A stretch of DNA of 64,000 nucleotides from Fidelibacterota bacterium (GTDB taxonomy: Bacteria > Fidelibacterota > Marinisomatia > SCGC-AAA003-L08 > TS1B11). Positions 28,112-43,586 of the stretch are shown here, piece by piece. The DNA is taken from assembly GCA_004124875.1 (NCBI GenBank), contig SCKJ01000003.1, positions 156,654-220,653 on the forward strand, in the 5' to 3' direction. Each line of letters starts with the position of its first letter. The stretch's first letter is position 1. The notes under the pieces were generated by a model. That model was not told where the DNA came from, did no database searches, and saw nothing but the letters and a program-made list of their open reading frames with translations. The position numbers were made by a program, and so were the translations under genes.

Positions 28112-28393
28112 CTACAGCCTCTCTGTCTTCACCTCCAGTAAAATCCAGTCACTGCCGGTCTCCAGGCGATGAATGATTTTGGAGACGCGCTTTTCCACCA
28201 CATCGTTCTCTGCCGCCACCGTGACGAACGCCAGTTCGGCCCGGTTCCACACCTCCTGCTGTCCCACTTCGGCCACGGAGACGTTCATGCGCGCCACGGT
28301 GCTCTCCTTGAGCGACTTCACGACCCGCCGCTTCTCTTTCAGGCTGTGGGCAGCGGGGATATCAATGTGGGCACGCAGGAGGACGATGTGCAT
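28112..28393 (-). CDS. DUF503 (YlxP-like) small protein
   Basis: 93 aa. Motifs SLKEKRRVVKSLKE and NVSVAEVGQQEVWNRAELAFV match the DUF503 family pattern. Confidence 0.6.
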   Translation of the reverse strand: MHIVLLRAHIDIPAAHSLKEKRRVVKSLKESTVARMNVSVAEVGQQEVWNRAELAFVTVAAENDVVEKRVSKIIHRLETGSDWILLEVKTERL

Positions 28394-28453
28394 TATACTT
28401 AACCCTGAACGGTCAAAAGATATTAATATGAATATTGTTCAGTAGCATCCAAT

Positions 28454-29098
28454 CTATGAAGCAATATCGCTGGCTATTAGAAACATCTGTAATATGTAAT
28501 GTTCATAGAATGAAATAGGTGGTGACGATCTTGGCATTGTCGTATTCAGAAAACCACCAATCCCGAGACGGGGAGGATATGTCAATAATTCATCCCTTAC
28601 GACAGATTTGAACTTATCATGCGAAGTTTCTGACCAGTGTGCTATAGCATTTCTGATTTGTCCCAATCTCGTTAAAATAGTTATACTAGTCTTTATAGGA
28701 TCTTTGAATGGAGACCCATTTTTGAAACATCTATCAGCCATATTGATAACAAAATCAGGATTTCCCCAGGATGCAAAATCTCGAGATAATGGTACTACAT
28801 ATTTAGTCGCGGCTAACCTTGTCGGTGGAAATACATACCGAACCGGTGTTTGTCCGTTTATCGATGGTTTTCCTAACAAATAGAGCAGGAACGAGTCTTG
28901 CAGAAATTTTTCATATGCTAGAAAGGATCTGAGGAACGCCAACTCAGTCACCACGTGCCTATGGTGATTCGTAAATCTTGGGATTTTAGAACCAAAATTG
29001 TAGTTTACCCAAGCGTTCGAATTAACAATTAGTCTTTCAGACTCTTTTAAATTGAAATTATAAGAGGCAAGAGCACCATTGAGATCAGTAATTGCCAT
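28454..29098 (-). CDS. HEPN-motif protein (Abi-like), putative RNase effector of the island
   Basis: 214 aa in an AT-rich context. The C-terminal region has an Rx4H HEPN-type motif (LGQIRNAIAHWSETSH). It is co-directional with, and 8 nt downstream of, the DUF262 gene. Confidence 0.45.
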   Translation of the reverse strand: MAITDLNGALASYNFNLKESERLIVNSNAWVNYNFGSKIPRFTNHHRHVVTELAFLRSFLAYEKFLQDSFLLYLLGKPSINGQTPVRYVFPPTRLAATKYVVPLSRDFASWGNPDFVINMADRCFKNGSPFKDPIKTSITILTRLGQIRNAIAHWSETSHDKFKSVVRDELLTYPPRLGIGGFLNTTMPRSSPPISFYEHYILQMFLIASDIAS

Positions 29099-29106
29099 TC
29101 GATGAG

Positions 29107-30255
29107 CTAGGGGATTGCCTCTACTATTAACTTTGAGATATATTTCGTCATGACGGTTCTAGGCCCTGAGTTGACCCAATGTACCCGGCTAGCTGAGTAA
29201 AATTCCTGTTCTGAGGCAGAGAGTTGATCAATTAAGGCAGTCTTTTTTTCTAGCATTTGTAGATCAGTCAGAGCCTCCAGATTATCTCCGATGGCCTCTA
29301 TTTTCTCATATATCTCATATATATAATTGATAGATTCGAGAGCAACCTGAACTTTAGCATGGTCTTTTTTCTTAATGCGTTTCCTATCTTCGTTAAATTC
29401 TTGTAACCCGTATTCCATGTGGTATAAAGCACAAAATAACGGGTAAAAAATCACACGACTGCTAAATTTTGATGATGCGAAGGTTGAGCCAAGTATAGTA
29501 CCAATTTTATCCAATATTGAATAAAAATGTTTCAGCAATTTGTCTTCGTTTGGTACATCCGCATCATATAATCTATAAAACTTGTTTATTAACAATTTCT
29601 GTTTCGATTTAATGCCCTCCACCATTGCGATTAGTAATTCGGATACAAACTCCGCTTCTTGCATCCGCATAATATGTGTTTCTGTGAACATCCCTGTTTC
29701 AATCCAAAACGTATAATATTCCTGGGATATCTCATATACGAGGGACCTAAACGAACCAAAAAAGTTCGCATGACGAAGCTCTTGAGCATTAAGGGTAGTC
29801 CCATAGCTATTGAGCCTAGTAAATATATCAATTACTTCTTTATCGGACATCATTTGGAGCAGGTCCACCACAAACTCATAGTTGTAAAACGAGATCTGGG
29901 TGTCGTCATCAAGGTCCGAAAAATGCATATTCGCATATTCCTTATTGTGGGCCTTGATAATTTTGAAACCATCATTTAGAAAAAGAAACACAGTACTTAA
30001 TCGTTGTTGACCATCCACTATCTCTCTGGCCGTGCGTTTAGATTTTATGTTAATGTCCTGTCTCATATATAGTTTCGGGATAGGCTTCCCTCTGAGGATT
30101 GAATCAATCAGGAATGATCTAGCCTTATCGCTCCAAACTAATCGCCGTTGAAACTTGGGCTGGAGAGTAATCTCGCTCTTATTATTCCATTCTTCAAAAT
30201 CTCTAATACTTATAAGTCGGGTAGCGAATAATTGTGCCATTTTACTGTCAATCAC
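29107..30255 (-). CDS. DUF262 (ParB-like/GmrSD N-terminal domain) protein
   Basis: N-terminal LQPKFQRRLVWSDKARSFLIDSILRGKPIPKLY and the hallmark EIVDGQQRLSTVFLF (DGQQR motif). No HNH/DUF1524 motifs were recognized in the C-terminal half. Confidence 0.8.
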   Translation of the reverse strand: MIDSKMAQLFATRLISIRDFEEWNNKSEITLQPKFQRRLVWSDKARSFLIDSILRGKPIPKLYMRQDINIKSKRTAREIVDGQQRLSTVFLFLNDGFKIIKAHNKEYANMHFSDLDDDTQISFYNYEFVVDLLQMMSDKEVIDIFTRLNSYGTTLNAQELRHANFFGSFRSLVYEISQEYYTFWIETGMFTETHIMRMQEAEFVSELLIAMVEGIKSKQKLLINKFYRLYDADVPNEDKLLKHFYSILDKIGTILGSTFASSKFSSRVIFYPLFCALYHMEYGLQEFNEDRKRIKKKDHAKVQVALESINYIYEIYEKIEAIGDNLEALTDLQMLEKKTALIDQLSASEQEFYSASRVHWVNSGPRTVMTKYISKLIVEAIP

Positions 30256-30292
30256 TTACTTTATTTGCAGAGGCGGAAATATACTGGTTTGA

Positions 30293-31459
30293 CTATAGTC
30301 TTCGCAGTACCAAAATGCGCTCAATAATAGTAGTTTTAGTCTTTCTCCTTGAGCGACGGTTGTCAGGGATTGGATCAGAGAGAATGTCTATCATTTCAAA
30401 TTGATTATTTGTCGAATTAAGAGCTAATTTGCAAAGTAAGTCAGCTGTGTTTTTCGTGGTTCCATTTCTTGCATAGTCTCCGATAATAAGGATGCAATGG
30501 CCCTTTGGTACCAGGTTGCGGTTTATTTCCTTAAACCATGCTCCCATAAAATTCAAATAATTATTACCTCGAGGCGAGAGCCGTTGATCCATTTTTTGCC
30601 AATCAGTTTCACCAAGAAACCAGAGTCGCAGCCGATTATCTCGCCCATAGCTAAGCGTGTCAAAATAGGGTGGACTCGTTATGACCGCATTAATTGAACC
30701 GTTAGGAATGGGCACATAAAGTGACTCCCTGTTCCACACGCGGTAATTATGGTTAGTCCACGAGTTGGGCAGATTTGATCGCCGATACGCTCGTTTAATT
30801 TTTGCAATTAAACGGGAACGGAGATCCCTATAATCATACATTTCTGGAAAATTATCAAAAGGGTATTTGCGGTCCCTCAGATAAGGCACCATATGACTAG
30901 AGGGATAAGATAGAAATCCAGGTCTTTGGTGGTGCAGGATACCAAGCAAGCAAGAAAGAAGAAAATAATCTTTATGTTCCCTTAATACCTGAAAAGCAGC
31001 AACGACTTCACGCAACGTTTCGTTATGAAAAAATGCCCTTACCCATTTGGGCACACGTCGAAGGTCAATACTGGGCGCCTTACTTGCTATCTCTATCAGG
31101 GCGGCCTCTGTATTCTTCAATGCTAATTCCAAGGAAATAGGGGCCTCCAATTTCCCTCTTGTCAACGTGTAAGCATATGGGTTCAAGTCATTTGCCCACG
31201 CAGTTCTCCCAAGTAGTGCGCTTTCAAAGGGAACGACGCCTGATCCCGAGAAGGGGTCGTAGACCACATCTCCTGGCGAAGTAAACTGGTCTATCAAGGC
31301 ATTGGCCATCCCCGTCTTAAGTTTCCCTATATAGGGTGCGAGTTGCTGAAGTGTGTTCTCGCGGCCATTGAATGAGCCTTCCCAAAGCTTGGGATCAACC
31401 CTTGGCGCCTGTTGAGTGTCTTTATTTTTCAAAAGTACAGGCCTTTCGGGGTTTCTCAA
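30293..31459 (-). CDS. Site-specific DNA methyltransferase (amino-MTase; SPPY catalytic motif, N4-cytosine or N6-adenine)
   Basis: AdoMet-binding motif I (VVYDPFSGSGVVPFESALLGRTAWANDLNP) and catalytic motif IV (AVITSPPYFDTLSYG). First gene of the AT-rich island operon. Confidence 0.8.
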   Translation of the reverse strand: MRNPERPVLLKNKDTQQAPRVDPKLWEGSFNGRENTLQQLAPYIGKLKTGMANALIDQFTSPGDVVYDPFSGSGVVPFESALLGRTAWANDLNPYAYTLTRGKLEAPISLELALKNTEAALIEIASKAPSIDLRRVPKWVRAFFHNETLREVVAAFQVLREHKDYFLLSCLLGILHHQRPGFLSYPSSHMVPYLRDRKYPFDNFPEMYDYRDLRSRLIAKIKRAYRRSNLPNSWTNHNYRVWNRESLYVPIPNGSINAVITSPPYFDTLSYGRDNRLRLWFLGETDWQKMDQRLSPRGNNYLNFMGAWFKEINRNLVPKGHCILIIGDYARNGTTKNTADLLCKLALNSTNNQFEMIDILSDPIPDNRRSRRKTKTTIIERILVLRRL

Positions 31460-31552
31460 ATATTACTTAAGAAAAGCCAGTTTTAATAGGACAAGTGGCC
31501 CATTCAAAGGTCTGTGCCTTTATGTATGATCCATCCTCAGTCCCCGCCGCCC

Positions 31553-32449
31553 CTACTGGCCTCCGAGAATAATCGGCAGTCCGTCTTTGCCGGAGCCGAT
31601 GACCACCACCTTGGCGTTGGGTGACATGGCCAGCTCCGCCGTCGCCTCGATCCCTTTCCAGCGCAGCAGATTTTCGCTGAGACTTTCGGTGACGATGCGG
31701 TTCTGGTCAGCCGTGCCCCGGGCCTCGATCACCTTGCGCTCGGCCTCCTTGCGCTCCTTCGCCAGGACAAATTCCATCCGCTGGCTCTCCTGCTCGGCGC
31801 GCAGCTTCTCCTCGATGGCCTGGGAGAGATCGCTCGGCAGCTCGACCTGCCGCAACGGTGTCGAATCAATGTAAATGCCGTAGACCATGGTGGCTTCGTG
31901 CAACTTGTTCTTGATCCCTTCAGAGACCTCTTCACGCATCGAGGTATAGAGTGCCTTGGCCTCATACTGCGCCGTTACGCCACGCACCACCGAGCGGAAA
32001 TTGGGGATCAGAATCTTGCGCAGATAGTCATCCTCACGGCCCACGGTTTTATAGATTGACGGGGCGAAGGAGGGGTCGAGCCGGTAGAGGACCGACAGTT
32101 CCAGTCCCACGGTGAGGCCTTCCTTGCTGGGCACGCGCATCTCCTCGCGGCGCTCCTGAATTTTGATGGTCATTTTGATGATGTCGGCAAACGGGTTGCG
32201 CACATTGATGCCTTCGACGAGGATCCGATCATCAACTTTCCCGAACACCTTGACAACGCCCACCGTCCCCGCATCGATAATCGTAATGGTTTGCAGACCC
32301 GCCATCACCAGCGCGACCAGCCCAATGAGTTGCAGCGCCCCAGGCCCGATGCCCAGCGCCGCCAGCTGTGGCGATATCCCTTTGCGCTTGATCTGAACGG
32401 AAAGCACCAGAGCGAACAACCCGACGATAAGAAATAATACGAAACGCAT
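31553..32449 (-). CDS. SPFH/band-7 (stomatin/prohibitin-like) membrane protein
   Basis: N-terminal TM helices followed by an SPFH core (GTVGVVKVFGKV...REEMRVPSKEGLTVGLELSVLYRLD) and a coiled-coil C-terminus. Confidence 0.8.
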   Translation of the reverse strand: MRFVLFLIVGLFALVLSVQIKRKGISPQLAALGIGPGALQLIGLVALVMAGLQTITIIDAGTVGVVKVFGKVDDRILVEGINVRNPFADIIKMTIKIQERREEMRVPSKEGLTVGLELSVLYRLDPSFAPSIYKTVGREDDYLRKILIPNFRSVVRGVTAQYEAKALYTSMREEVSEGIKNKLHEATMVYGIYIDSTPLRQVELPSDLSQAIEEKLRAEQESQRMEFVLAKERKEAERKVIEARGTADQNRIVTESLSENLLRWKGIEATAELAMSPNAKVVVIGSGKDGLPIILGGQ

Positions 32450-37819: not shown

Positions 37820-37893
37820 GCCCCGGTAGCTCAGCTGGATAGAGCAACGGCCTTCTAAGCCGTAGGTCATCGGTTCGAATCCGATCCGGGGTA
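37820..37893 (+). tRNA. tRNA-Arg (anticodon TCT)
   Basis: Cloverleaf read by eye: acceptor GCCCCGG/CCGGGGU, D-arm GCUC-AGCUGGAUA-GAGC, anticodon stem ACGGC/GCCGU with loop CUUCUAA, variable AGGUC, T-arm AUCGG-UUCGAAU-CCGAU, discriminator A. CCA is not encoded. Confidence 0.85.
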
Positions 37894-37894
37894 C

Positions 37895-37966: not shown

Positions 37967-38462
37967 CGGAGCGATCACCATTACCCCGCAAACGGCCAGT
38001 ATTGATGGAGAGGACCGCCAGGTATTGGTTTTCTCCTGGCTGGATGCGCAAGGGGAGCCTGTGCATCAGGCGGTGGATATGTCTGACTAGGCAGCGTGCC
38101 TATTGAGGCATTGGCAGATATTCGCGCGACAAAGGGCTGCATATGAATGCAGCCCTTTGTTCATCTGGATGATTGTGTAAACTGCTTTCGTATTTTGGCA
38201 GTAGTTTATACGGTATTATAACTTGATAATGCATGTAATATTACTTAATTTTGGGTGATTATGATTAATCCTAGCAAAAACTGGATTATATTTAATACAA
38301 AACCGAGGAGGTCACCCATGAAACTATCTGCTAACCTGGTATCTATTTGGTCATTCGATCACCCATTAAAGCCATGCTTGTTGTTATATCCTCAAGCGTG
38401 GCTGGTAAAAGATTCAAATCCTTTTCAAAATCACGTCGTAAACCTAGTCCGGAGGAGTGATT

Positions 38463-38645
38463 ATGAGTGGAATGGACAAAGGAAAAACAGGGGAGTCGAA
38501 AGAAGTTCCGGTTGATATTGAGATTATCGAGATTATCGAGATTATCGAAGAAACAGAGACTACTGGAGATATTCAGGACAAATCTACCTATATTGGGGTT
38601 GTTGGGAGACCTGTCCCCCCAAAGATATTGATCTTGAAGCAGTAG
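38463..38645 (+). CDS. Small acidic hypothetical protein with EIIEIIEII repeat (island cargo)
   Basis: GGAGG RBS 7 nt upstream of the ATG. The repeat is encoded by (GAGATTATC)3 at 38516-38545. AT-rich context. Confidence 0.3.
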   Translation: MSGMDKGKTGESKEVPVDIEIIEIIEIIEETETTGDIQDKSTYIGVVGRPVPPKILILKQ

Positions 38646-38734
38646 TACCATTAGAATTCTCGGGCAATTCTCTTTACATGCACCCATCAATGTATCAGAG
38701 GATTGTTCCTTAATATCAATTACTTGAGGTTCTC

Positions 38735-38980
38735 ATGAACGATATATCAGAAGAGAAGAAAATTATATCAGAAGAAAAGAAAATTCGAATTACTGCTGAT
38801 TTTCATCCAGATGCCTATGCAGTACTTAATCGTGTTGCCGACATGCTACACACTAGTAAAGCTGACGCTTTAAGACGAGCACTTGGACTAATCGATTATA
38901 TTCTTACCATTCAATCCAATGGGAGTGAATTAATCATTGAAGAGAAAGGTGGCAAGCGAACCGTAATTAAGACCTTTTAG
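38735..38980 (+). CDS. Ribbon-helix-helix-like small DNA-binding protein (antitoxin/CopG-like)
   Basis: 81 aa. ITADFHPDAYAVLNRVADMLHTSKADALRRALGL resembles an RHH beta-strand-helix-helix pattern. Confidence 0.45.
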   Translation: MNDISEEKKIISEEKKIRITADFHPDAYAVLNRVADMLHTSKADALRRALGLIDYILTIQSNGSELIIEEKGGKRTVIKTF

Positions 38981-39591
38981 ACTGTGGATAGATTATTGCA
39001 AACTGCCTAAAGGAATACGGAGTCAATAATAGCAGAACAAAAGCCAGCAACGCTGGATACGGCACCAGAGAACCCTACAGTCGAAAAAGAAGGATTCGTC
39101 GGGCCCCCTGAAATTAATGTTTCAGGATTCGTCGGGCCGCCTACCAGCCCTGAAATTCATGTTCTTCGCCGTGAAAAAACAAGGAATTATATTATATTTG
39201 CGGTGCTTGGCATGATGGCACTAATTGTCTTTATACCTTATTTAGTACAGCCTAAATCAGATACACATTGGAACCTTTTAATATACGCTCTAAATGGTCT
39301 AACTGGTATTCTTGGAACTAGTATAGCCTTTTACTTTCGGCTGAGGGATAGAGAATAGACAGTCAACGGCGCAAGGCTAAACTGTCTCTCTAGCTAAAGG
39401 GTTGTATTCTTATTTATGAATTGTAAGAGGGAATATTCGATTCATTTATAAATCAATAGCATCTGTATTTATTTCCATAGTTGAAATCGAGGCGTGCCCA
39501 AGAAATCTCGAGACAAACCGCATTATCGGCGTCAGAGTTTCGTCACTCTTTCTTGCCGCCTTTTTTCTTTTGTCGTCGGACAGACCAAGTT

Positions 39592-39663
39592 CTTCTAAGC
39601 CGTAGGTCATCGGTGAGTTGATCCCGCGTAACAAAGTGAAGCGGGGAATCCGATCCGGGGTAC
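39592..39663 (+). pseudogene. Degenerate partial copy of the tRNA-Arg 3' half (anticodon loop to acceptor end) with a 32-nt insertion in the T-loop, followed by a copy of the tRNA terminator (about 39698-39725)
   Basis: cttctaagccgtaggtcatcgg + tgagttgatcccgcgtaacaaagtgaagcggg + gaatccgatccggggtac matches 37849-37892 apart from the insertion. The downstream aagaagaacccgccacggcgggttcttctt mirrors the terminator at 37895-37932. No tRNA 5' half is present. Confidence 0.75.
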
Positions 39664-39934
39664 TCGTCGACAGGCTTTGTGCAGGCGTTTAAGAAGAACC
39701 CGCCACGGCGGGTTCTTCTTAATAGTCTGCCTATGGCTTCGATTCCTTGTTCGAGCCGAGACCCGCGGAATGACGGGCCGAGACTGGTGAGGAGTCATGA
39801 GGTGGCGGCAATCTGTTCTACAGCAGTAGCCTCACACTTCGTACGACCAATTGGACGACAATAGCAATTTATATGTGAGTCGCGATACGAGTTTTGATCT
39901 GCAAGGAACCGACTAATTTGAGTTGGCTGCTCAT

Positions 39935-41461
39935 TCAGCGTAGATTTGGGGGCCGAATATCGTTATCAAGCTTCTGGCCAATCTGAATTACTACTTGAGG
40001 TAACGCCTCAATATCGCCCAGTGTTGTACGAAAATTTACAATGCAGGCTCTCAATAAATATTTTCCGTCCAGTGCTGCGTTCGAGATAAACACCTCGCCT
40101 CCAGCCTGCAGCTGGGTAAGAAGTGATTCGTTCAACTCGTTTAAATAGGCCTCAACTTCTGTGTTTTTATCGGGTAAATCAGTGGGTACGTAGCGGAAGG
40201 TTGTAATACTTAGACTGTGAGACCCAGCCTCGAGATCGGGGGAGTCCTCTGCAATTTGGTAGAGCACTTTTGCCAAGGCAATGTCGTCACCAATCATCTG
40301 GATGTAGCCCTCCTTTCCTACTTGGCGCAATCCTAGCCAAACTTTCAGCGCGCGGAATCCACGAGAATTTTGGAGACCAATTTCATGAAAATTGATAGGC
40401 GGGACATCCTCAGTGCTCGCGAATTTAAAATAGCTTGGGGTATGAGTAAAAGTATCTACCAAGTGCTGGGGATCTCGGACTAGTGCGCAGCCTGCTTCAA
40501 GGGGTGCATAAAGCCATTTATGTGGATCGAGTGCGATTGAATCAGCTTCGGATAATCCCTTCAACTGCACAGAAGCATCGGGCAACATAGCAGCGGGCGC
40601 ACCGTATGCGCCATCTACGTGAAACCACAGATCGTATTTTTTACAAAGGGCCGCAATTGCGGGTAGATCATCAATCGCGCCGGTGCCTACAGTTCCCGCT
40701 GCACCCACAACCATAAATGGCAAAAATCCCTCGTTGCGATCGGTAATGATTTTATTTTCCAGCGCAGCCATTTTCATTTTCTGATCGGAATCTGTCTCAA
40801 TCCAGCGAATTGAGTTACCGCCCATTCCGAACAGCTCGGCTGCTTTATCTATCCATGTATGAGTCTCTTCGGACACGTAAGCGAGGAGCTTCGGATGATC
40901 GCTACTAGCCAAGCCCTCCGTACTAATATCCCATGATGCTTTTGAATTTCGGGCTGCGAGGAAACAGACAAAATTTGCCATGTTGCCGCCACTCACCATA
41001 AGTCCGCCGCAGGTTCTTGGATAACCGATGAGGTCAGCGATCCAGCGAATCAATTGAGCCTCGATTTCACTCGCGATCGGTGATAGAATCGCCGCCCCTA
41101 CATTTGGGTTCACCGCACCAGCCAATAGGTCAGCCAGAATGCCTATAGGAGCTGCAGAGGAGGTGATATATCCCCAAAACCTTGGATGACCATTGTGCAA
41201 CGAATTGTCAAATAGCAGATCAGACACTTCAATGAGCAGATCTTTTGCGGCTGATCCGTTCTCAGGCAAGACGTCCCCACCTAACAGTTCACGAATAGCT
41301 AAATGAGATTTCCCGCTAGTCACTGGTCGCTGCGGCAGATCATCGAGAAACTCGGCGATCTGGTCTACGAGCTGGTGGCCGAGCCTACGAAATTCGCTAC
41401 CGTGAATCTCTAGTGGCATCTCTCGAGCACGTAACTGCATCCTTTGATCATTCTCGATCAT
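39935..41461 (-). CDS. PLP-dependent group II amino-acid decarboxylase (aromatic-L-amino-acid/diaminobutyrate decarboxylase family)
   Basis: 508 aa. SGGNMANFVCFLAARN, the PLP-lysine region SIALDPHKWLYAPLEAGCALVRD, and a HVDGAYGAPAA motif. Embedded in AT-rich island DNA. Confidence 0.8.
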   Translation of the reverse strand: MIENDQRMQLRAREMPLEIHGSEFRRLGHQLVDQIAEFLDDLPQRPVTSGKSHLAIRELLGGDVLPENGSAAKDLLIEVSDLLFDNSLHNGHPRFWGYITSSAAPIGILADLLAGAVNPNVGAAILSPIASEIEAQLIRWIADLIGYPRTCGGLMVSGGNMANFVCFLAARNSKASWDISTEGLASSDHPKLLAYVSEETHTWIDKAAELFGMGGNSIRWIETDSDQKMKMAALENKIITDRNEGFLPFMVVGAAGTVGTGAIDDLPAIAALCKKYDLWFHVDGAYGAPAAMLPDASVQLKGLSEADSIALDPHKWLYAPLEAGCALVRDPQHLVDTFTHTPSYFKFASTEDVPPINFHEIGLQNSRGFRALKVWLGLRQVGKEGYIQMIGDDIALAKVLYQIAEDSPDLEAGSHSLSITTFRYVPTDLPDKNTEVEAYLNELNESLLTQLQAGGEVFISNAALDGKYLLRACIVNFRTTLGDIEALPQVVIQIGQKLDNDIRPPNLR

Positions 41462-41711
41462 TATCTATACCTCAATTCCAATTTGGGGGAGATTTATAAA
41501 TCACAATCTAATCAAAGTTAAACATTGATCCGGAATTATACCATATCCGGGCGGTATCGTTGTGCGCATCAGAGCATTGTGGACCACTCGTCGGTAATTG
41601 CCAATAAACACTTTAGTGGTCGCCTTAGTCACCGCTGGTCACCATTGGCCAAAATTCTGCCTCGTTTTCCAACCTCTTTTTTGGCCTGTCGAGGAGACCC
41701 CAATGATCTGA

Positions 41712-41749
41712 AAATCCATGTGTCGGCGGTTCAATTCCGTCCCGAGCCA
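41712..41749 (+). other. tRNA/tmRNA-like 3' fragment (T-arm plus acceptor 3' strand), probable attachment-site remnant
   Basis: GTCGGCGGTTCAATTCCGTCCCGAGCCA-cta has a T-stem/loop and 3' acceptor resembling the 3' end of tmRNA or a tRNA. No matching 5' acceptor strand lies within 400 nt. The antisense ORF 41625-41825 (..RDGIEPPT..) is the usual artefact of reading through such a sequence. The 30 nt upstream (cgaggagaccccaatgatctgaaaatcca) are repeated at 43283-43314. Confidence 0.5.
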
Positions 41750-41756
41750 CTATAAG

Positions 41757-41790
41757 AAAGGCCCCTTTTCTCGTCGGGAAGAGGGGCCTT
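41757..41790. terminator. GC-rich palindromic hairpin (possible terminator)
   Basis: aaggcccct-(15 nt)-aggggcctt, a 9-bp perfect stem. A T-run (atgcattttc) follows on the plus strand only. Confidence 0.35.
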
Positions 41791-42280
41791 ATGCATTTTC
41801 TAGAGACATTTTTGAGGAGCTTCAAAAGTGGTCAGAATGGGGTACCTATAGGGCGTTTTCTACTCGTTTTCCTTACCCGTTTTTGAAGCGAGTTATTAAT
41901 TTTGTCTAGAACCGATTAAAGGGAATATTAGCTAGAAGACTCTGCATTCTCACGAGCTCACCACTTGATTGAGCTTCACACTCACCAGGTTTTATACATT
42001 ATCTTGTGGGTTTTATCGGGCTGACTGATCCGCCAACAAAGAGCGCTCCAACAGAGGAAGCGTTTTCACCTGAAACCACGGCACCAAATGGTATCTGTGT
42101 CATGAATAGGATGCCCAGAAAGGCTCTCTTAACTTTAATCTCAACCTACCCGAAACGATTTGACGATGTACAGAGTACTACTCCATTAAATATTTGATTC
42201 AAATCTTTACATTTCTGTGACATTAGCATGACAACGTGCTGTTAAACATTTGATAGATTAAGGCAACCAGGGAGGTAATT

Positions 42281-43024
42281 GTGCTACATCGCTTTGGACC
42301 AGTCAGTCTTTTATTGTGCTTGCTGTCTAGCTTCCTTACGGCTCAAAATGTTTCTGAGTCTAAGTACGAAGCAAGTTACAATCCAATGCTCTGGGTGTCT
42401 TACAATCCAAAATCTGACGACATTTTTAATCAGACCTTCACCGTGATAACGAAAAAGATGATTTCGAAAAATGGCTTCGAGTTAATGCGTGGCTACGGGA
42501 TTGGACATCTTGAACATAAGAGCCGCAGATTCCCTTCAGACTTGAGACTCAGTCCAAGAACTATTCGCAGGATACCTGACAAAGAATGGAGCAGACTGAC
42601 AATGGTTTACCAGGAGATGCGGGCCGAACTAGCTAGCGATGGAATCCGGCTTGGGCTGGTGGGTACCTTAGGAATAGGCTATGCAAAATATAGCGGGCAG
42701 CTTTTTGAAACAGTAACGTACTATAACGATATATTGGATGAAACTGAATATGATCAAAGGTTTAAATCATCCTATGACGCGAGTGGAGCCACCTACTTCG
42801 CCAGTCTAGGAGCGCGATTGAATCTTGGGGGGATTGTTGTGGAACTGCGCAAGAATTACGGACCTGGCCACGACCAAACGATTAGATACATATCCTTTAA
42901 TCTTGGCTATGAGACGAGTTCCCTGGGTATATCCATGATTCCTCCTTTCCTCGGGATAGTCGCAGCCATTATGATGAGTCAGCTGACATTTGACTTCGGG
43001 GATTCCTTTAGTGGAGCCCTATAG
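42281..43024 (+). CDS. Hypothetical secreted/outer-membrane beta-rich protein (island cargo)
   Basis: Signal peptide (MLHRFGPVSLLLCLLSSFLTAQ), alternating hydrophobic beta-strand-like segments, and an aromatic C-terminus. AT-rich codon usage. Confidence 0.45.
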   Translation: MLHRFGPVSLLLCLLSSFLTAQNVSESKYEASYNPMLWVSYNPKSDDIFNQTFTVITKKMISKNGFELMRGYGIGHLEHKSRRFPSDLRLSPRTIRRIPDKEWSRLTMVYQEMRAELASDGIRLGLVGTLGIGYAKYSGQLFETVTYYNDILDETEYDQRFKSSYDASGATYFASLGARLNLGGIVVELRKNYGPGHDQTIRYISFNLGYETSSLGISMIPPFLGIVAAIMMSQLTFDFGDSFSGAL

Positions 43025-43586
43025 GATGAAAAGAAGCTTACAATGGCGGCCTTTCAGTATAGCTAGATTGCCTAACTATTTCGCTTTAATCTTTTTTCAC
43101 ACAACTTTTATTCACGGGAACAATTCTGGGCTGATGGGTCAATTCCCGCCTTTCTTCAGGTTAGTTACGTGTACACCAAATATGCTTCAAGACTGATAAA
43201 TCGACATCATCTGGATAGGTCACCTTAAGTCAGCATTGATCAAATTACTGCCACGTTTCCCATACTCTTTTTTATTTTGTCGACGAGACCCAAATGATCT
43301 GAAAATCCACTGCTTAGCGTTCTATTTGGCGTGAGCGGTTAATAATGAGGACCTCAAGAAGGCTTACTAAAGACCGTCCTACAGGTTATTATCTGCTTCC
43401 TACCCCTCTTTTGTTCTGTGGCCGTTATTTAATAGGAACTGGCGCCAGTTTTAGCCAGTGCGTGCCACAAAGTGCCAGAATTGGACATCACTTTATAGCA
43501 CAGTTCGTCTGAGGATGAGAACCTTGGTTCGAGCCGGAGCGATCCCGACATTTCGGGAGAGCGGAGACCTATTGAGCGTAGCGAAA

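Follow-up and report, generated by a model that had tools for sequence, protein, structure and literature searches.

A low-GC island encoding a DNA methyltransferase, a DUF262 protein and a HEPN protein in a Fidelibacterota bacterium as a candidate methylation-linked defence cassette

Introduction

A 64,000-nucleotide stretch of DNA from a Fidelibacterota bacterium (contig SCKJ01000003.1, positions 156,654 to 220,653; hereafter the window, in which position 1 is the first letter of the stretch) carries at positions 28454-31459 three genes for an amino-DNA methyltransferase (MTase), a protein with the ParB-like DUF262 domain and a protein with a HEPN-type motif. An earlier interpretation made from the letters alone (the sequence-only reading) had proposed that this AT-rich trio, which it did not recognize as any named system, was acquired horizontally and combines the self-marking and sensing parts of a restriction-modification (R-M) system with a HEPN protein as the effector. 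The locus hence raises the question of whether the three genes form a real unit, to which known systems that unit is related, and what part the methylase plays in it.

In SspE, GmrSD and BrxU, modification is sensed by DUF262 (PMC10952713, PMC12065111). From the comparisons described below, we consider it probable that the island is a horizontally acquired cassette for a defence system of the type in which a DUF262 sensor is paired with a HEPN effector. The full methylation-gated model, with the MTase marking self, the DUF262 protein reading the mark and the HEPN protein acting as the effector, is one that we favor only slightly.

Results

Translation of the open reading frames (ORFs) of the window gave three co-directional ORFs on the minus strand at 28454-31459, and the tight spacing reported previously was reproduced: 8 nt separate the DUF262 stop from the HEPN start, and 37 nt lie between the MTase and DUF262 genes (52 nt when the ATG start described below is used). 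An identical gene order was present in independent assemblies from several samples, in which the three proteins are called at 379, 377 and 214 aa, and the island is therefore not an assembly chimera.

The gene for the predicted RNase effector (28454..29098, minus strand) encodes a 214-aa HEPN-domain protein with the motif R149-N-A-I-A-H154 at 28637-28654. Searched by itself, this protein gave in Pfam a sub-threshold match to HEPN_RiboL-PSP (PF18735; E 0.11, 12.8 bits against a cutoff of 28.4), which is located at the motif, and no match in PADLOC, NCBIfam or PHROGs. An exhaustive HMMER search, on the other hand, returned 682 cluster representatives, nearly all of which are 200-220 aa long. When 107 representatives were aligned, R149 and H154 were the only invariant columns, and N150 was conserved in at least 90% of them. 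Scanned singly, 42 of the 107 members matched PF18735 at E<0.1 (best 1.5e-6); the other recurrent Pfam matches were mostly to the HEPN clan (Swt1, Cthe_2314, MAE_28990, DUF3644, pEK499_p136, Abi_2 and ApeA), among which MAE_28990 (PF18737) was matched by only six members (best 5.2e-4). An alignment-based AlphaFold2 model (the single-sequence model had a predicted local distance difference test score, pLDDT, of 35) has an all-alpha HEPN fold, and its best structural matches are the HepT-type HEPN toxins 8xdj, 5yep and 7ae2, while a Foldseek search against the PDB gave no significant match and a PDB sequence search with the HEPN profile gave nothing useful. The HEPN assignment made from the RNAIAH motif was hence borne out: the 214-aa protein is a single-domain HEPN protein with an intact active-site signature and is a predicted RNase.

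We also noticed that a word-indexed search with the 214-aa protein returned the query alone, though relatives with 35-45% identity are abundant. This was a false negative, and an "orphan" outcome of such a search is not trustworthy for small, fast-evolving proteins.

The middle gene (29107..30255, minus strand) encodes a 382-aa protein from a GTG start; judging from the alignment of homologs and the public gene call, translation likely begins at the ATG at 30240, which would shorten the protein to 377 aa. As had been read from its DGQQR motif (30001-30015), the protein is a DUF262 protein lacking the usual nuclease partner domain: the sole Pfam match was to GmrSD_N (DUF262; E 1.1e-24), and GmrSD_C/DUF1524 (HNH) was absent. 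In PADLOC, the top match was NsnA (1.8e-41), which extended over residues 15-302 against model positions 51-342 of 385, and the next was PD-T4-2_A (7.8e-22). A model named REase_II (PDLC03418, 372 positions) matched residues 29-171 only, i.e., the DUF262 domain (E 2.6e-15), and the HEC-05/06 and SspE-type models gave weak matches confined to the same N-terminal domain. The protein is thus described here as a ParB-like DUF262 NTPase with an NsnA-like, ParBDB-type C-terminal half and as a predicted DNA sensor. More than 1,700 relatives were found in a word-indexed search, the nearest being 45-57% identical over the full length, and the segments QRRxVW, DGQQR and FxRLN were invariant in 32 homologs with a mean column identity of 65%. 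A PDB sequence search with the DUF262 profile detected no solved structure. By its motifs, the protein would be NTPase-competent.

The first gene of the operon (30293..31459, minus strand) encodes an amino-DNA methyltransferase, which we call type A; the longest ORF has a TTG start and 388 aa, and the public call gives 379 aa from 31432. Pfam matched N6_N4_Mtase (E 1.4e-14), with additional matches to UPF0020 and MethyltransfD12 at the N-terminus, and PADLOC matched MTase_II (2.9e-26). The FxGxG and SPPY motifs that had been noted were located by translation, and motif I (DPFSGSG, 31238-31258) precedes motif IV (SPPY, 30665-30676), an order that is circularly permuted with respect to the beta-class structure 2zie. 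Both DPFxGxG and SPPY are intact in all of the 21 MTase orthologs that adjoin DUF262-HEPN pairs, and these 21 alpha-order enzymes share a strikingly conserved segment between the motifs (GILHHQRPGFLS...VPYLR). The MTase is therefore active-looking by its motifs; SPPY suggests methylation of N4-cytosine, and N6-adenine is also possible.

Conservation of the three genes was examined across GTDB species, each represented by a single genome. As the HEPN sequences are too divergent for seeding such a scan, the DUF262 alignment was used, with two conserved peptides as seeds; the best 80 of 218 relatives were kept, in which genes were called as longest ORFs and HEPN partners were found with hidden Markov models built in this analysis. 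In 78 of the 80 loci, a gene of the HEPN family begins at a distance of -37 to +26 nt relative to the stop codon of DUF262; the two exceptions are a locus cut by a contig end (L058) and a 7.5-kb locus with no detected HEPN-family ORF (L042). The carriers are spread over Acidobacteriota, Chloroflexota, Bacteroidota, Alpha-, Beta- and Gammaproteobacteria, Bacillota, Verrucomicrobiota, Planctomycetota, Nitrospirota, the Candidate Phyla Radiation (CPR) and archaea. Four individual look-ups of homologs in unrelated contexts gave the same order of MTase, DUF262 and a protein of about 212 aa, the third genes being 35-45% identical to that of the window. The pair is also carried by the conjugative plasmid pRE117-1 (partner by hhalign 99.9%, E 1.4e-31) and by 10 of 14 viral or proviral contigs in IMG/VR, two of which have the full triad; plasmid-borne pairs adjoin other toxin-antitoxin (TA) genes, and further family members adjoin GmrSD, MmeI-like enzymes, ABC ATPases and integrases. 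Given the tight adjacency and the carriage by plasmids and viruses, DUF262-HEPN is a self-contained, horizontally mobile two-gene unit. In one complete genome (L001, 1913-3589), the triad stands beside a full-length GmrSD (DUF262+DUF1524) with a phage integrase 4 kb away; this setting is a defence island in which two different DUF262 systems lie side by side.

The methylase is linked to the pair in a more restricted manner. In a simple neighbor-joining tree of DUF262 without support values, the loci with a linked MTase group into a single clade, to which the window belongs, and an MTase lies directly upstream of DUF262 in 28 of its 29 loci. Outside the clade, where MTases were sought by Pfam on the upstream gene only and by a crude regular-expression motif scan of the ORFs within 3 kb, DUF262 is preceded by unrelated genes of the housekeeping or mobile kind, and the motif scan gave candidate MTases in three of 55 loci. 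The linkage is therefore 28/29 in the clade versus at most 5/55 elsewhere (Fisher's exact p 4e-16), and the window's copy is in the one clade of the family that is obligately linked to a DNA methyltransferase. That the three genes would be found together in other genomes, as the sequence-only reading required, was thus verified, with the HEPN gene as the constant partner and the MTase as the partner of one clade.

Within this clade, furthermore, the methylase itself is not constant. The alpha-order SPPY enzyme of the window is found in 21 loci, and a beta-class enzyme (DPPF...FAGGG) occupies the same slot in seven, which fall in at least three places of the tree; L001, for example, has this type B MTase and is nested among type A loci. 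Non-orthologous MTase types are hence swapped into the same position within the clade, which points to a requirement for a methylase rather than for one particular gene, and an interchangeable methylase is the behavior expected of a self-marking component. The sensors of the clade also differ from the others: they have HWV(H/N) near the C-terminus where the MTase-free clade has ATTD, beside an Arg residue that is invariant in both. In the window, this is H359-W-V-N362 of the 382-aa ORF (29170-29181), the same column having been compared in L001-L089, and about 18 further sensor positions are clade-specific as well. These positions are candidate determinants of a dependence on methylation.

The island occupies a site that is variable among relatives. 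The GC content of 28454-31459 is 40.5% against about 60% in both flanks, and the island is the lowest of all 3-kb segments of the window (mean 0.557, sd 0.049, minimum 0.403 at 28401), as the sequence-only reading had described. From the GC profile and the junctions in relatives, the inserted low-GC island, to which no strand is assigned, covers 28394..31552 and fills the intergenic space between two conserved host genes, namely a DUF503 gene (28112..28393, minus strand; Pfam DUF503 2.7e-25) that is syntenic with SPFH in relatives and an SPFH/Band_7 gene (31553..32449, minus strand; Pfam Band_7 2.2e-28) with homologs of 64-68% identity. We compared this junction in metagenomic relatives with a 64-68% identical SPFH protein, where the oxidoreductase gene likewise precedes SPFH. 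One relative has an empty junction of 217 nt (L096, 819-1037), which supports the horizontal acquisition proposed earlier. A second (L090, 7245-8974) has HEC-01 (HEC-01A 2e-157, HEC-01B 1.5e-55), an experimentally validated defence system, and a third (L092, 7329-9517) has low-GC cargo composed of a Schlafen/AlbA_2+HATPase_c_4 protein and an AAA_31 ParA-like ATPase. The site is hence a defence hotspot with alternative cargos, among them the triad of the window, and this variability supports both its horizontal acquisition and a role in defence. The SPFH-DUF503 junction will be usable as a marker of defence hotspots in this Marinimicrobia-related lineage.

Around the island, the flanking genes encode penicillin amidase, GDPD, M28 peptidase, DUF503, SPFH, pyridine-nucleotide disulphide oxidoreductase, SpoU and saccharopine dehydrogenase, which are ordinary metabolic and housekeeping functions with host-like GC. 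No nuclease-fold gene was found within about 6 kb on either side of the cassette, and no restriction enzyme had thus been missed among these neighbors. Also in agreement with the earlier description, the island edges have only short, chance-level repeat matches and no integrase was found at the island, the nearest tRNA being 6 kb away. Scans of the cassette for promoters and terminators gave no signal above shuffled controls.

Discussion

In terms of gene content, the closest validated system is PD-T4-2 of E. coli ECOR65, which consists of two ORFs ("DUF262, HEPN") with no methylase (Vassallo 2022, Table S1; PMC9519451) and defends against T4 in a heterologous E. coli host as well as, by deletion in ECOR65, in the native strain (PMC9519451). 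The window pair shares with it the adjacent order of a DUF262 protein without DUF1524 and a HEPN protein, and its DUF262 protein matches PD-T4-2_A. The window differs in having a methylase, in the size of the pair (1.8 kb versus about 1.54 kb in total) and in the better score of NsnA for its sensor (1.8e-41 versus 7.8e-22), a pattern that was the same in five standalone and two mobile-element pairs. Moreover, the PADLOC model for PD-T4-2_B matched neither the HEPN protein of the window nor seven further partners, and membership of PD-T4-2 in the strict sense was rejected as protein B is unmatched. The window pair is accordingly a distinct family that shares the architecture of PD-T4-2.

A related arrangement was seen in an E. 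coli prophage (Escherichia phage vB_EcoM-689R6, ON470584; L170:2980-4691), in which an integrase, a 350-aa DUF262 protein and a 216-aa protein are found next to icd. Its partner is only remotely like the HEPN family of the window (hhalign E 7.5e-4), with RNACAH aligned to RNAIAH. We rejected this locus as a proxy for PD-T4-2 because PADLOC does not call PD-T4-2 there; it is not a close member of the HEPN family either, and probably represents a third, diverged DUF262+HEPN family.

Menshen (NsnABC) is the system to which the sensor is most similar. NsnA was described to combine ParB-DUF262 with a DNA-binding "ParBDB" domain that is shared with DndB, GmrSD and SspE (PMC12065111), and the window protein is NsnA-like over nearly its full length. 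Some Menshen loci are also associated with methylases, and the authors of that study considered that methylases without a nuclease partner may work with ParB-DUF262 domains targeting unmodified genomes (PMC12065111). In the window, by contrast, the effector is a HEPN protein encoded directly after the sensor; no ORF for the NsnB ABC-ATPase (AAA_15/DUF3696) is present in or beside the island, and nothing corresponds to NsnC (inPIN plus a C-terminal nuclease), the third gene being the single-domain HEPN protein. With neither NsnB nor NsnC, membership of Menshen was rejected.

The logic that we propose would resemble that of SspABCD-SspE, in which a DNA modification serves as the self mark, the reader is a DUF262 NTPase and the invader is met by an attached effector, but the mark would be methylation instead of phosphorothioate, and the effector is a separate HEPN protein instead of a fused DUF1524 nickase; beyond the weak N-terminal domain matches in PADLOC, no sequence match of the SspE kind was found for the window protein. 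The Type IV enzymes GmrSD and BrxU likewise have an N-terminal DUF262 domain with DGQQR, but they are single-polypeptide DNases against modified DNA and have the DUF1524/GmrSD_C His-Me nuclease that the window protein lacks. The absence of DUF1524 excludes the triad from the GmrSD, BrxU and SspE groups. None of the three proteins matched the DzbA or DzbB models in PADLOC at E<=1, and Dazbog was also rejected for this reason.

In EcoprrI-PrrC, a HEPN-type RNase is embedded with a methylase-containing DNA surveillance system, and the output is a shut-off of translation. PrrC differs in having an ABC-ATPase-like N-terminal domain and in being held by the Type Ic HsdMSR, while the window has neither HsdR nor HsdS, and its HEPN protein is partnered with DUF262. 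The HepT-MntA pair is different again; the window HEPN protein is coupled with a DUF262 NTPase in place of an MNT nucleotidyltransferase, exceeds HepT in length by about 80 residues through additional helices, and shows a sequence identity of only 6-12%.

Operons of HEPN, ParB-like and DNA methylase genes, furthermore, were already listed in Table 1 of Anantharaman et al. 2013, in which the R-M-linked HEPN proteins were compared with PrrC (PMC3710099). The gene content is the same as that of the triad now seen to recur in 28 of 29 clade loci, and the window HEPN family is nearest to PF18735 (42 of 107 members), with six members matching MAE_28990 (PF18737), the HEPN family by which the 2013 class is defined. 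The 2013 class consists of table entries, with no experimental work or clade analysis, and we found no paper in the literature that characterizes or tests the triad. The triad itself is unnamed, in line with the sequence-only reading, whereas the novelty of the combination was overstated there: DUF262+HEPN is a known two-gene defence architecture with the composition of the validated PD-T4-2, and the MTase-linked triad is a new variation on it that was foreseen by comparative genomics in 2013. With a HEPN fold and conserved RNAIAH residues, genes that co-localize elsewhere and no restriction enzyme nearby, the earlier interpretation of an R-M-like arrangement with a HEPN effector is supported, and only its novelty is downgraded.

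How might such a system work? The MTase would methylate a fixed motif in the host DNA and thereby mark self. By the paradigm of SspE and GmrSD/BrxU, the DUF262 protein would bind DNA and use NTP hydrolysis for reading the modification status. DNA of the wrong status would then cause the DUF262 protein to release or activate the translationally coupled HEPN protein, which would cleave RNA (tRNA, rRNA or mRNA), so that translation would halt and the infection be aborted. The parts of this scheme that we infer are its function in defence, the direction in which methylation is sensed, a physical DUF262-HEPN complex and the RNA target. As to the origin of the MTase-linked clade, we put forward more tentatively that it represents R-M-like immunity with an RNA output, in which a DUF262-HEPN pair that ancestrally did not depend on an MTase was turned methylation-gated by capturing interchangeable methylases; its sensor would read methylation with the help of clade-specific changes such as HWV(H/N) in place of ATTD, and the response would be cleavage of RNA instead of DNA.

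Several observations weigh against this methylation-gated defence model. Most members of the family have no adjacent MTase, and the reading of methylation is hence not intrinsic to the pair; even in the clade, one member (L003) has no adjacent MTase, an MmeI-like enzyme being 4.5 kb away. Four of the seven beta-class enzymes (about 570-590 aa; L011:329-2032, L017:4251-6017, L022:4215-5948 and L030:4210-5943, all upstream of DUF262-HEPN pairs) have DLPY instead of the canonical (D/N/S)PP(Y/F) and may be inactive; these MTase-like proteins also share an N-terminal extension of about 190 aa with a CPAC...KDYGGK segment. The trigger may be unmethylated or methylated DNA, and should the marks of the type A and type B MTases differ, reading both with one sensor would not be straightforward. 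No PADLOC model recognizes the HEPN partner, and PD-T4-2_B touches just 2 of the 107 members (E 0.027). Finally, conserved DUF262 peptides served as seeds of the survey and genes were called as longest ORFs, and the support for the DUF262-HEPN family is computational.

Four other explanations were considered. The triad might be an R-M system in the strict sense, with the DUF262 protein itself as the DNA endonuclease for unmethylated sites, the MTase as the protector of the host and the HEPN protein as a PrrC-like back-up RNase that is freed when a phage inhibits restriction. Indeed, Anantharaman et al. 2013 named the partner a "ParB nuclease" along with their PrrC analogy (PMC3710099), the REase_II model matches the DUF262 domain, and the MTase is adjacent in nearly all members of the clade. 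This match is nevertheless limited to the DUF262 domain, and in the systems that have been studied, DUF262 is the NTPase and sensor while DUF1524, absent here, does the cutting. Furthermore, at least 50 of the 55 pairs found elsewhere lack an MTase within 3 kb, a state incompatible with a sequence-specific DNase, and the HEPN gene is coupled to DUF262 more tightly and universally than the MTase is. We thus regard this explanation as unlikely. An ordinary Type II R-M pair was rejected as well; the MTase motifs are present, but no restriction endonuclease is encoded nearby, and the sole REase_II signal is the DUF262 domain itself.

Alternatively, the pair might be a toxin-antitoxin or addiction module that mainly serves to stabilize mobile DNA. 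The DUF262 NTPase would then restrain the HEPN toxin, through binding or through a nucleotide-dependent modification of the kind known from MntA-HepT, with the MTase as a neighboring passenger. The structural similarity to HepT-type toxins, the compact operon of two genes that overlap or almost abut, and the occurrence on prophages and, beside other TA genes, on conjugative plasmids would be consistent with this idea. The sensor gene, nonetheless, comes first and the HEPN gene second, and the "antitoxin" would be a protein of about 360 aa with a conserved DNA-binding half. The monophyletic and position-conserved linkage of the MTase, together with its replacement, is also unlike a passenger gene. 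We consider this quite unlikely, though the roles of such modules overlap with abortive infection and hence with the sensor-effector model that we prefer.

A third explanation, which we hold to be very unlikely, is a Type IV-like system, in which DUF262 senses modified foreign DNA as in GmrSD, BrxU and Dazbog, and the MTase has no part in distinguishing self from non-self, being an orphan or regulatory enzyme or belonging to another system. Known DUF262 proteins do recognize modified DNA, the sensitivity of Dazbog is tied to methylated DNA, PD-T4-2 was selected with T4, the modified DNA of which may be its target, and the MTase-free majority of the family would fit as well. If methylated DNA were what is sensed, however, an active MTase encoded directly upstream would pose a risk of autoimmunity, and the near-complete linkage with repeated MTase replacement in the same slot implies that the MTase is functionally integrated. 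Lastly, a non-immune cassette, whether epigenetic/regulatory or a decaying remnant without function, is hardly credible: the promoter and terminator scans stayed at the level of shuffled controls and the evidence for the family comes from computation, but the three ORFs are intact with all the catalytic motifs, purifying selection is strong (DUF262 mean column identity 65%), the family has spread horizontally across phyla and mobile elements, and the hotspot holds validated defence systems in relatives.

If the methylation-gated model is true, the three genes of the island would make up a compact system whose epigenetic self mark controls an RNase rather than a DNase, and the logic of R-M would be tied to abortive infection more directly than in EcoprrI-PrrC. 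The family also offers a natural comparison, namely 29 MTase-linked versus 55 MTase-free loci with swapped MTase types and clade-specific sensor residues, which could show how DUF262 sensors gain modification specificity, a question that also concerns Menshen, Dazbog and PD-T4-2. As the PADLOC models miss the HEPN partner, such loci have probably been overlooked in defence annotation.

Apart from the cassette, the window has a second low-GC stretch at 38000-43500 (0.38-0.50 versus about 0.60), which starts directly after a tRNA-Arg(tct) gene at 37820-37894 and may be a tRNA-linked island. Its part at 38.0-39.9 kb has no ORF of at least 150 aa, and the product of the minus-strand ORF at 39935-41461 resembles, by eye, a pyridoxal phosphate (PLP)-dependent decarboxylase.

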